6,642 bases of DNA from Verrucomicrobiota bacterium. GTDB taxonomy: Bacteria > Verrucomicrobiota > Verrucomicrobiia > Chthoniobacterales > UBA6821. The notes under the pieces are model-generated. The model had not been told where the DNA came from and made no database searches. It worked only from the letters and a program-made list of their open reading frames with translations. This document shows, one piece after another, positions 4,683 to 5,219 of the stretch (positions within the stretch are counted from its first letter, which is position 1; each line of letters begins with the position of its first letter). Made by a program: the position numbers and the translations under genes. Location: the NCBI GenBank assembly GCA_008932965.1, contig WBXG01000075.1, positions 1 to 6,642 of the forward strand, written 5' to 3'.

Positions 4683-5138
4683 TTAACTTTCAGAACTTGG
4701 TTTTTCTTCTAAAGTAGTTTTTGTTACTCCCCCTTTTTCCACTCCTTCTACTATGAGTTTCCACTGTTGAGCAACTCGTACAAATTCCTCAACACGCTCC
4801 ACAAAAGGCTCTCCTTCGATCGAGTTGACTGGAAATTGCTGGGCCAGGTAGACAGTTTGAATATCGGTGCGTGCGCTGAGTGTGCTTCCTGAGGTAGCTG
4901 CCCAGAGGAAGTTGGCTTGGGCAATGCTCGAGAGAATAGCCACTTCAGCATCTAGTTGATAGGTTCCAATCTCAGCAAAGAGAAGAACCATCGAGGTCTC
5001 TTCCTCAAAGTCAATGGTGATGGTAGAGCCTTGCTCAAGCTCGAGCGCAAGCTGATTGGAAGGGAGGGGGTTGGGAAATTCAGGTAAGTTACAATGGGCT
5101 CGGAGTGCTTCTAGGAGTGATGTATATGGTGAAGACAT
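4683..5138 (-). CDS. class I type III secretion chaperone (CesT/SycE/Tir-chaperone-like)
   Basis: 151-aa ORF with an ATG start. It is small and strongly acidic (22 D/E versus 8 K/R by my count). The layout matches CesT-family chaperones: N-terminal helix (LLEALRAHCNLPEF), beta-rich core (LALELEQGSTITIDFEEETSMVLLFAEIG), the ...IAQANFLW..TSGSTLS... segment and a C-terminal helix (FVERVEEFVRVAQQWKLIV). It lies directly upstream of the putative effector. Confidence 0.75.
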   Translation of the reverse strand: MSSPYTSLLEALRAHCNLPEFPNPLPSNQLALELEQGSTITIDFEEETSMVLLFAEIGTYQLDAEVAILSSIAQANFLWAATSGSTLSARTDIQTVYLAQQFPVNSIEGEPFVERVEEFVRVAQQWKLIVEGVEKGGVTKTTLEEKPSSES

Positions 5139-5190
5139 AAAAGGAAGTATAGATGGTTTTTTTTAAGAAATATCCGAATGAACTTTTAAA

Positions 5191-5219
5191 TCTATAATTT
5201 GTCGGAGATTTCAATTCAA
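5191..5219 (-). promoter_or_regulatory. candidate sigma70-type promoter for the chaperone-effector pair
   Basis: On the - strand: TTGAAT (5219-5214), a 17-nt spacer, then TATAGA (5196-5191), about 50 nt upstream of the chaperone ATG at 5138. Sequence match only. Confidence 0.35.

Follow-up and report, generated by a model that had tools for sequence, protein, structure and literature searches.

Does a two-gene unit in the genome of an uncultured freshwater bacterium encode a type III secretion (T3S) chaperone together with an effector aimed at the membrane-fusion machinery of eukaryotic cells? This question is raised by a 6,642-nt stretch of DNA (contig WBXG01000075.1 of GenBank assembly GCA_008932965.1, analyzed over its whole length and hereafter called the window) from a member of the Chthoniobacterales within the Verrucomicrobiota. 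On its minus strand, a gene for an acidic protein of 151 amino acids (positions 4683-5138) is followed, after a spacer of 27 nt, by a gene for a basic protein of 279 amino acids (positions 3816-4655) that ends in a SNARE motif. A preliminary description of this DNA had interpreted the two genes as a bicistron formed by a T3S chaperone and its effector. The computational analysis reported here strongly supports a chaperone-effector module. With somewhat better than even confidence, we read the two genes as a co-transcribed class I chaperone-effector pair, whose effector would be passed to a system for type III secretion (T3SS) encoded elsewhere in the genome and would serve, inside a eukaryotic cell, as an R-SNARE mimic without a tail.

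A Class I Chaperone by Sequence and Predicted Fold

The 151-residue protein contains 22 Asp/Glu residues versus 8 Lys/Arg residues, as the preliminary description had counted, and its calculated isoelectric point (pI) is 4.25; both its size and its charge lie within the range of class I T3S chaperones (approximately 130 to 170 amino acids, pI about 4 to 5). A hidden Markov model search places residues 8 to 127 of the protein on positions 2 to 119 of the 119-position Pfam profile for CesT (PF05932), with an E-value of 6.1e-11 and a score of 42.9 bits that exceeds the curated cutoff of 22 bits. Since this match (E = 6e-11) is accompanied by at least 105 clusters of homologous proteins, the open reading frame (ORF) is not a chance one. 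No match to the Pfam YbjN family was found at E-values of up to 1, and a search of NCBIfam returned no match for either the chaperone or its 279-residue partner. A direct sequence search against the Protein Data Bank (PDB) yielded only marginal matches to CesT (E about 0.6); weak sequence matches are usual for the fast-evolving family of T3S chaperones.

An AlphaFold2 model built from 26 homologs (predicted local distance difference test (pLDDT) score, 84.5; predicted template modelling (pTM) score, 0.77) consists of a folded core (residues 1-136) and a disordered tail (residues 137-151; pLDDT below 50). The predicted secondary structure elements of the core (helix 4-16, strands 29-33, 39-45 and 50-59, helix 62-82, strands 86-90 and 95-103, helix 110-134) follow the order alpha-beta-beta-beta-alpha-beta-beta-alpha that is characteristic of class I T3S chaperones. 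When this model was compared with the PDB by Foldseek, all of the first 34 ranks were occupied by T3S chaperones, among them ExsC, VecA, CesT, SicP, SchA, STM2138, SigE, SpcU, SycH, SycE, SpcS and the AvrPphF chaperone. ExsC complexed with ExsE is the top match (E = 4e-7), VecA reaches template modelling (TM) scores of 0.72 to 0.83, and the CesT-CsrA complex appears at rank 9. The non-secretory YbjN/AmyR proteins are found only from rank 38 onward, with an E-value of about 4e-4 that is roughly 1000-fold worse. The length and segment order claimed in the preliminary description are thus borne out by a predicted SycE/CesT-type fold, and the 151-residue protein is established, by sequence and predicted fold, as a member of the class I (CesT/SycE-type) T3S chaperone family.

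A Partner Protein with an R-SNARE-like C-Terminus

The candidate secreted effector encoded directly downstream is a basic protein (pI 8.7) that possesses neither a Sec signal peptide nor a transmembrane segment. Its residues 225 to 274 (positions 3834-3983, minus strand) match positions 12 to 61 of the Pfam Synaptobrevin profile (PF00957) with an E-value of 2.8e-7 and a score of 30.7 bits, compared with a cutoff of 26.4 bits. Six sequence matches were obtained in the PDB, and all of them are R-SNAREs (VAMP4, VAMP2, squid synaptobrevin, VAMP2/3, VAMP7). The HMMER alignments with VAMP4 and VAMP2 are gapless and align the Arg residue of the segment LEQRGKTL with the zero-layer Arg of VAMP4 (IERGERL) and of VAMP2 (LERDQKL); the RG pair is retained in five aligned motif-bearing partners of related chaperones (see below) and in further homologs. 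The AlphaFold2 model of the 279-residue protein (pLDDT 48.6) is too poor for a fold search; this low-confidence model contains a long helix (residues 221-277), and its N-terminal part consists of short strands and one helix. There is no C-terminal transmembrane anchor after the SNARE motif, and the polypeptide chain stops five residues later (...KNQLKGRCF). We therefore regard the protein, judged by its sequence, as a tail-less SNARE mimic and a noncanonical, rather than canonical, member of the Synaptobrevin family.

The N-terminus of the same protein (MNSTRSQSISNLHNIVNLDKDTREV) has the Ser/Thr/Asn-rich and non-acidic character that had been ascribed to it: nine of the first 18 residues are Ser, Thr or Asn, and the first acidic residue is Asp19. 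This start is followed by a conserved module (DKDTREVSING...PTGFFSSLTMAFRCFFRS...MQSKIDMGSPLTKGALMRFL), and in homologs of the effector, residues 1 to 115 (positions 4311-4655, minus strand) are approximately 70% identical while the remainder of the protein is replaced or reassorted. A conserved N-terminus attached to a swapped remainder is the pattern that, in T3S effectors, is called terminal reassortment. Residues 1 to 115 are accordingly a candidate region for a secretion signal plus a chaperone-binding domain.

Among 5.8 billion proteins, five homologs of the 279-residue protein were found, all of them from Verrucomicrobia or freshwater metagenomes; one of the five is an identical NCBI entry annotated as 'hypothetical protein DVB29_07120 [Verrucomicrobia bacterium]'. 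Wherever the genomic context is available, the SNARE-gene homologs are located directly downstream of the 151-residue chaperone. In the metagenome-assembled genome (MAG) Tobar2m-G38 (L011, positions 2040-2130), the homolog is interrupted near a GAAAAAATG run and reads as two ORFs that overlap; the cause is a frameshift in the assembly, or else the gene is a pseudogene.

Recurrence, Mobility and Recombination of the Two-Gene Unit

The unit composed of the 151-residue chaperone gene, the 27-nt spacer and a SNARE-gene homolog recurs in L011, L050 and L051, where it adjoins a divergent deoC gene. The chaperones at the deoC locus share the tail 'GGVTKTT.EEKPSSES' with that of the window, and the window copy of the unit adjoins tsaB, i.e., it occupies a different chromosomal site. 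Coordinates confirm the 27-nt gap reported for the same-strand pair; this AT-rich spacer (positions 4656-4682, minus strand), which separates the chaperone stop codon from the effector ATG, is identical at 26 to 27 of its 27 positions in the window, L011, L050 and L051, although the effector codons that immediately follow the ATG are strongly divergent. A scan called no terminator-like site in the spacer, and we therefore infer that the chaperone and SNARE genes are co-transcribed.

DNA alignment with the 99%-identical strain L002 revealed how the window arrangement may have arisen. Identity of about 99% extends to codon ~137 of the chaperone gene, and a block of 96% identity resumes at codon ~58 of the gene for a 249-residue protein that lies next to the effector gene in the window. 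Between these breakpoints, 1131 nt in the window (positions 3598-4728, a strain-variable cassette whose extent follows from the DNA alignment, the limits of the blastn blocks and the gene maps) correspond to approximately 210 unrelated nt in L002. A simple insertion of the SNARE gene can be dismissed: the event is a replacement whose end points fall inside the chaperone gene and the 249-residue gene, and a module of the donor type is present at the deoC locus. The two recombining chaperone paralogs are approximately 92% identical, and the window chaperone is best explained, on sequence comparison, as a recombinant of both, in which the body of the tsaB-locus paralog has been joined to the tail and the cargo of the deoC-locus module.

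The interval between deoC and ilvC is likewise variable. It contains two tandem modules in L050 (positions 9518-12364) and one each in L011 (positions 1309-2591) and L058 (positions 8114-9485); no module is present in L052 (positions 3986-6076), where deoC and ilvC are adjacent. Because of its recurrence at the deoC locus, its conserved spacer and its variation among strains and islands, we conclude that the two genes move and persist as a unit, and no other observation available supports a functional link between chaperone and cargo as strongly as this behavior. Judged from these loci, the conserved pairing of the chaperone with the SNARE gene is no coincidence of the window. In L012, an IS200-like Y1 transposase gene (PF01797, E = 1.2e-7; positions 2972-3973, plus strand) is situated between a gene for a 365-residue SNARE-motif effector and the genes for a 254-residue homolog of the 249-residue protein and for hpt; this transposase may serve to move cassettes.

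The strain comparison also brings up another candidate for the client of the chaperone, namely the 249-residue protein (possibly with the hpt operon), in which case the SNARE gene would be a recent and functionally unlinked passenger. In strains L002-L005, a 162-residue chaperone gene overlaps the start of a 235-residue homolog of the 249-residue gene by 4 nt, and in the 99%-identical strains a second overlap of 4 nt joins the 235-residue gene to hpt. The gene order chaperone, 209/214-residue homolog and hpt is kept even in a lineage of 74% identity, and the GC content over the SNARE gene (0.35 to 0.40; positions 3801-4800) is lower than that of the flanks (about 0.45), a property that can be explained by a foreign origin or by an effector composition rich in Lys, Asn and Ser. 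We nevertheless reject the 249-residue protein as the true client and consider this explanation very improbable. The N-terminus of the protein is hydrophobic and resembles a signal or anchor (residues ~38-60, ...LLHA/DP), so that the protein is likely to be Sec-routed, not a chaperone client; the chaperone-SNARE unit is intact at the deoC locus of L011 and L050, where the 249-residue gene is missing; paralogous chaperones elsewhere never adjoin a homolog of it; and in L012, the different SNARE-motif gene and the transposase separate the chaperone from the 254-residue homolog.

A Multi-Paralogous Chaperone Family and Its Partner Repertoire

A single-sequence search retrieved 33 clusters of chaperone homologs and a profile search at least 105, all of them with scores of at least 119 bits. 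At least 105 of the homologous clusters begin with MSSPY, and all named members originate from MAGs of Chthoniobacterales or other Verrucomicrobia. An exhaustive profile search showed a drop in score from 143 to 92 bits beyond the family; by this measure the chaperones are a discrete family. The same search returned 987 weaker relatives, and the ten of these that were looked up are metagenomic proteins with no name or an uninformative one, for which the only organism label is Betaproteobacteria. A profile search for distant paralogs of the chaperone, which might have been located in a T3SS gene cluster, returned only the same tight family. Scanning the genomes of the Genome Taxonomy Database (GTDB) revealed 23 chaperone loci in 12 MAGs, mostly labelled Chthoniobacterales or Spartobacteria, and most of these MAGs show two to three paralogs. 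The isolate names of several chaperone-bearing MAGs point to lakes (Tobar, Kiruna, Lac Pavin, Deming).

At 17 of about 31 distinct chaperone loci, a same-strand orphan gene without any Pfam domain starts 9 to 90 nt downstream. These downstream partners represent at least six unrelated families. Nine of them, which fall into three N-terminal types and include L012_365 and L058_274 from other types of modules, end in an R-SNARE-like motif (xRGxxL...A..F...A..L), and three paralogous partners give sub-threshold Synaptobrevin matches at the same profile positions as the window protein. The type of the chaperone tail co-varies with the N-terminal type of the partner: the tail of the 151-residue chaperones goes with the N-terminus 'DKDTREVSING..PTGFFSSLTMAFRCFF', and the tail 'PExLEN..AQ' of the 162-residue chaperones goes with 'ELKLTS..GVTTRM..WGxITAxFGFDTT'. 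Modules of the 162 type share a box (CCTTATTCAAAAACCA) in the spacer between chaperone and effector. Over the first 25 residues of 18 partners, the fraction of Ser, Thr, Asn and Gln is 0.36 versus 0.23 in 232 control ORFs (p = 2e-6), a comparison in which the control N-termini are those of mechanically called ORFs and some of the partners are relatives of one another. The same segments are depleted in Leu and hydrophobic residues, and none of the 18 partners has a signal peptide. The chaperone family is therefore, as far as can be read from these loci, multi-paralogous and predicted to serve several types of effectors.

Two further observations concern the partners and their surroundings. Short Trp/Phe-rich tails follow the motif in the partners of L011, L018, L026 and L051 and in P0038 (NWNWLWPFR, NWLPF, KSWW, WNPF and WWPF). 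These tails are reminiscent of the WW residues at synaptobrevin's membrane interface and may take the place of a transmembrane anchor; the window protein has GRCF at its end instead. In L054/L055 (positions 6373-10797), L016, L022-L025 and L027, one chaperone paralog is found directly after a set of genes for ExbB, ExbD and a TPR protein of approximately 780 to 900 amino acids; the chaperone linked to exbB-exbD is then followed by a Ser/Gln/Pro-rich partner family of about 300 amino acids (L021/L022/L024), which is truncated to 94 amino acids in L054.

Elements Upstream of the Chaperone Gene

A promoter-like string TTGAAT-17-TATAGA, which the preliminary description had noted ahead of the pair, is indeed present upstream of the chaperone gene (positions 5191-5219, minus strand; TTGAAT at 5219-5214 and TATAGA at 5196-5191). 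Its promoter role is not supported. A sigma-70 scan of positions 2900-5400 called five promoter-like sites, compared with 4.2 expected from shuffled sequences, and the string was not among them. Two of the few single-nucleotide differences between the window and L002 fall into it, one in the spacer and the other changing TATAGA to TAGAGA. With a scan at chance level and a hexamer altered in a strain of 99% identity, the string was discarded as evidence.

A better lead is the hexamer AAAACC, which in the window is located 17 to 22 nt upstream of the chaperone ATG (positions 5155-5160, minus strand) and recurs 17 to 45 nt upstream of the start of many chaperone paralogs; it was found in 11 of 31 distinct upstream regions versus 15 of 290 control ORFs, a count inflated by the paralogy of the chaperones. 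We offer this box as a lead only, i.e., as a candidate for a shared promoter or leader element. It is also present in the upstream regions of L018, L019, L026, L031, L039 and L041. Six paralogs carry, approximately 20 nt further upstream of the box, a conserved TTGAC/CTGAC-containing motif (GAAAAAGTTGACGCTT or a close variant), which is a candidate for a shared promoter or regulon box.

An element common to many paralogs hints at a common regulon and might be taken together with the best structural match of the chaperone, the ExsC-ExsE complex, and with CesT-CsrA at rank 9, to suggest that the protein is mainly a regulator, which would sequester its partner in order to couple gene expression to secretion activity. 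Regulators of the ExsC type are single-copy proteins embedded in the regulatory operons of T3SSs, and this counts against such a role, given that two to three or more paralogs of the window chaperone are seen per genome, about half of them with a variable, cargo-like gene downstream. A regulator would, moreover, still need a T3SS, and chaperoning would be possible alongside it. We attach hardly any probability to a mainly regulatory function.

The Proposed Secretion Route and the Search for Its Machinery

We propose that the genes for the chaperone and its 279-residue cargo are transcribed together and that, in the bacterial cytoplasm, a chaperone dimer would bind the conserved cargo residues ~20-115 and maintain the protein in a secretion-competent state. 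The chaperone would then pass the cargo on to a T3SS of the injectisome type, which would be encoded at another place in the genome and through which the effector would enter a eukaryotic cell, probably a protist or an alga. Once there, its C-terminal R-SNARE-like helix would pair with Q-SNAREs of the host and thereby redirect or block membrane fusion. The module would be one of several paralogous cassettes in uncultured freshwater Chthoniobacterales that are gained, lost or moved when the near-identical chaperone genes recombine with one another.

Several findings weigh against this proposal. When 19 Ysc and Syc proteins encoded by plasmid pCD1 of Yersinia pestis were compared by tblastn with approximately 520 kb around the chaperone loci, only the beta subunit of the F1-ATPase was detected. 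The surroundings of about 30 chaperone loci, covered to a distance of 10 kb, yielded no T3SS apparatus gene, a result that applies to these neighborhoods only. A literature search brought up no report of a T3SS in Chthoniobacterales. Furthermore, approximately one in two chaperone paralogs lies beside a convergent gene and has no obvious cargo gene, and according to the gene maps, strains L002-L005 possess a chaperone that is 99% identical and lack the SNARE gene. Since a strain of such identity keeps the chaperone without this gene, the chaperone is not dedicated to the SNARE cargo alone.

These data lend some weight to the idea that a chaperone with a T3S-type fold operates here without an injectisome. 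It would stabilize or escort its neighbor inside the bacterium or to another export route (flagellar-type, linked to a type II or type VI secretion system, or of an unknown kind), and the SNARE-like coiled coil would then act in or on the bacterium itself. The lack of apparatus genes near about 30 loci and the silence of the literature on this order fit such a role, as do the shared fold of the non-secretory YbjN/AmyR proteins and the placement of the modules among housekeeping genes (tsaB, hpt, deoC, ilvC, exbBD, trpS); the Pfam-annotated neighborhoods of further chaperone loci contain housekeeping genes only. However, Pfam assigns the protein to CesT and not to YbjN, and the T3S chaperones exceed YbjN by about three orders of magnitude in E-value. 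In addition, the partners are signal-less, start with a Ser/Thr/Asn-rich N-terminus, and are strain-variable and reassorting orphans that bear a motif of the eukaryotic type; injected effectors show this profile. Pairs of chaperones and effectors scattered far from the apparatus genes are normal in Chlamydiae. Within the phylum to which the Chthoniobacterales belong, a T3SS is present in V. spinosum (PMC3681970). An injectisome-free role is, in our view, unlikely, and we prefer delivery by a T3SS encoded elsewhere.

Gene Content of the Window

As had been stated for this DNA, the window contains no T3S apparatus gene. The effector gene is followed on the minus strand by the gene for the 249-residue protein, an exported orphan (positions 3022-3771), and by hpt (positions 2474-3025), which was recognized from the ORF list and its Pfam match. 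On the other side of the chaperone gene are tsaB (positions 5227-5877) and tsaE (positions 5858-6319), both also on the minus strand and identified in the same way. Just beyond tsaE, the plus strand encodes a bacterial small signal recognition particle (SRP) RNA (positions 6391-6485; Rfam RF00169, 63 bits, E = 1.6e-12). The remaining genes are that for a transketolase, which is on the plus strand, unlike the chaperone gene, the effector gene and their neighbors, and a C-terminal fragment of an aspartate kinase gene.

The 249-residue protein has no Pfam or NCBIfam match; its gene lies next to hpt in several lineages, and the homologs in L012 and L014 are 56 to 69% identical. The strain-variable cassette takes in the first ~58 codons of the gene, with the hydrophobic segment that resembles a signal or anchor, and these codons are wholly unlike those of the 235-residue version in the 99%-identical strain.

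Relation to Known Chaperone-Effector and SNARE-like Systems

The window pair resembles SycE-YopE, SicP-SptP, CesT-Tir and VecA-VepA in that a small acidic chaperone of the same fold adjoins a signal-less cargo with a Ser/Thr/Asn-rich N-terminus. It differs from the structurally solved class I chaperones by a sequence identity of only 14 to 21%, and from the classical pairs by its host, an uncultured freshwater member of the Chthoniobacterales, by the shuffling of cargo cassettes among near-identical, recombining chaperone paralogs, and by the fact that apparatus genes were not found near the loci. With YbjN/AmyR, the chaperone has the overall fold in common, at a lower structural score and without a Pfam match to that family; we know of no YbjN genes that are paired with variable orphan genes.

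Effectors that act on SNARE-dependent fusion have precedents. The T3SS effector SipA of Salmonella has been reported as an R-SNARE mimic that recruits Q-SNAREs of the host (PMC6279372). InvB, the chaperone of SipA, is among the Foldseek matches of the window chaperone (2fm8, rank 48). To our knowledge, no detectable Synaptobrevin sequence homology exists in SipA, whereas the window protein scores above the Pfam Synaptobrevin threshold and aligns with VAMPs without gaps.

The SNAREs of the Legionellales (LseA and the Qbc- and R-SNAREs of Legionella) carry true motifs, and the R-type protein assembles with neuronal Q-SNAREs; they lack a transmembrane domain, and hosts are their presumed source (bioRxiv 10.1101/810531). 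The main text of that study (10.1101/810531) makes no mention of Verrucomicrobia, and a literature search for SNAREs of Verrucomicrobia yielded nothing relevant. The Legionellales proteins belong to Gammaproteobacteria, are substrates of Dot/Icm-dependent type IV secretion and mostly possess a C-terminal CAAX lipidation box. In contrast, the family described here is found in Verrucomicrobia, is linked to a T3S-type chaperone, and has short tails that are often aromatic (WNPF, WLWPF, WWPF, SWW, NWLPF) or, in the window, read GRCF instead of CAAX.

Within the Planctomycetes-Verrucomicrobia-Chlamydiae (PVC) superphylum, IncA and other Inc proteins of Chlamydia are secreted proteins with SNARE-like heptads that interfere with membrane fusion in the host (PMC2265411). 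Unlike these proteins, the window protein is devoid of a hydrophobic domain. Inc proteins, which are routed through the T3SS and whose effector genes are scattered, possess bilobed hydrophobic domains and SNARE-like heptads only, and we know of no Synaptobrevin Pfam match among them. Three aspects are new: the lineage, the linkage of a true Synaptobrevin-type motif to a chaperone of the T3S type, and cassettes that recombine by way of chaperone paralogs.

Implications for the Biology of Freshwater Chthoniobacterales

The modules suggest that lake bacteria inject proteins into eukaryotic hosts. In a broader form, which we put forward tentatively and at slightly less than even confidence, a widespread, uncultured lineage of freshwater Chthoniobacterales, so far deemed free-living plankton, would carry an undescribed T3S arsenal in which lineage-specific, multi-paralogous chaperones serve as recombination handles for the exchange of effector cassettes among chromosomal sites and several true R-SNARE homologs are injected into protist or algal hosts. 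If true, the lake MAGs of this order (Tobar, Kiruna, Lac Pavin, Tanganyika, Deming) would represent microorganisms that interact with eukaryotes, and their ecology would have to be read differently. With the window protein and its relatives, bona fide SNARE homologs would for the first time be linked to a T3SS instead of the type IV system of Legionella, and these proteins would provide the first evidence for host manipulation in this clade.

Orphan genes located 9 to 90 nt downstream of members of the chaperone family would, by the same token, become candidate effector genes, with at least six unrelated partner families recognized so far, and the swapping of cassettes between near-identical chaperone paralogs would constitute a natural example of the terminal reassortment of effectors. 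SNARE-homologous effectors would then extend from the Legionellales, which deliver them by type IV secretion, to the PVC superphylum, where they would be handled by a type III-style chaperone, and the same host target would have been acquired independently in the two groups.

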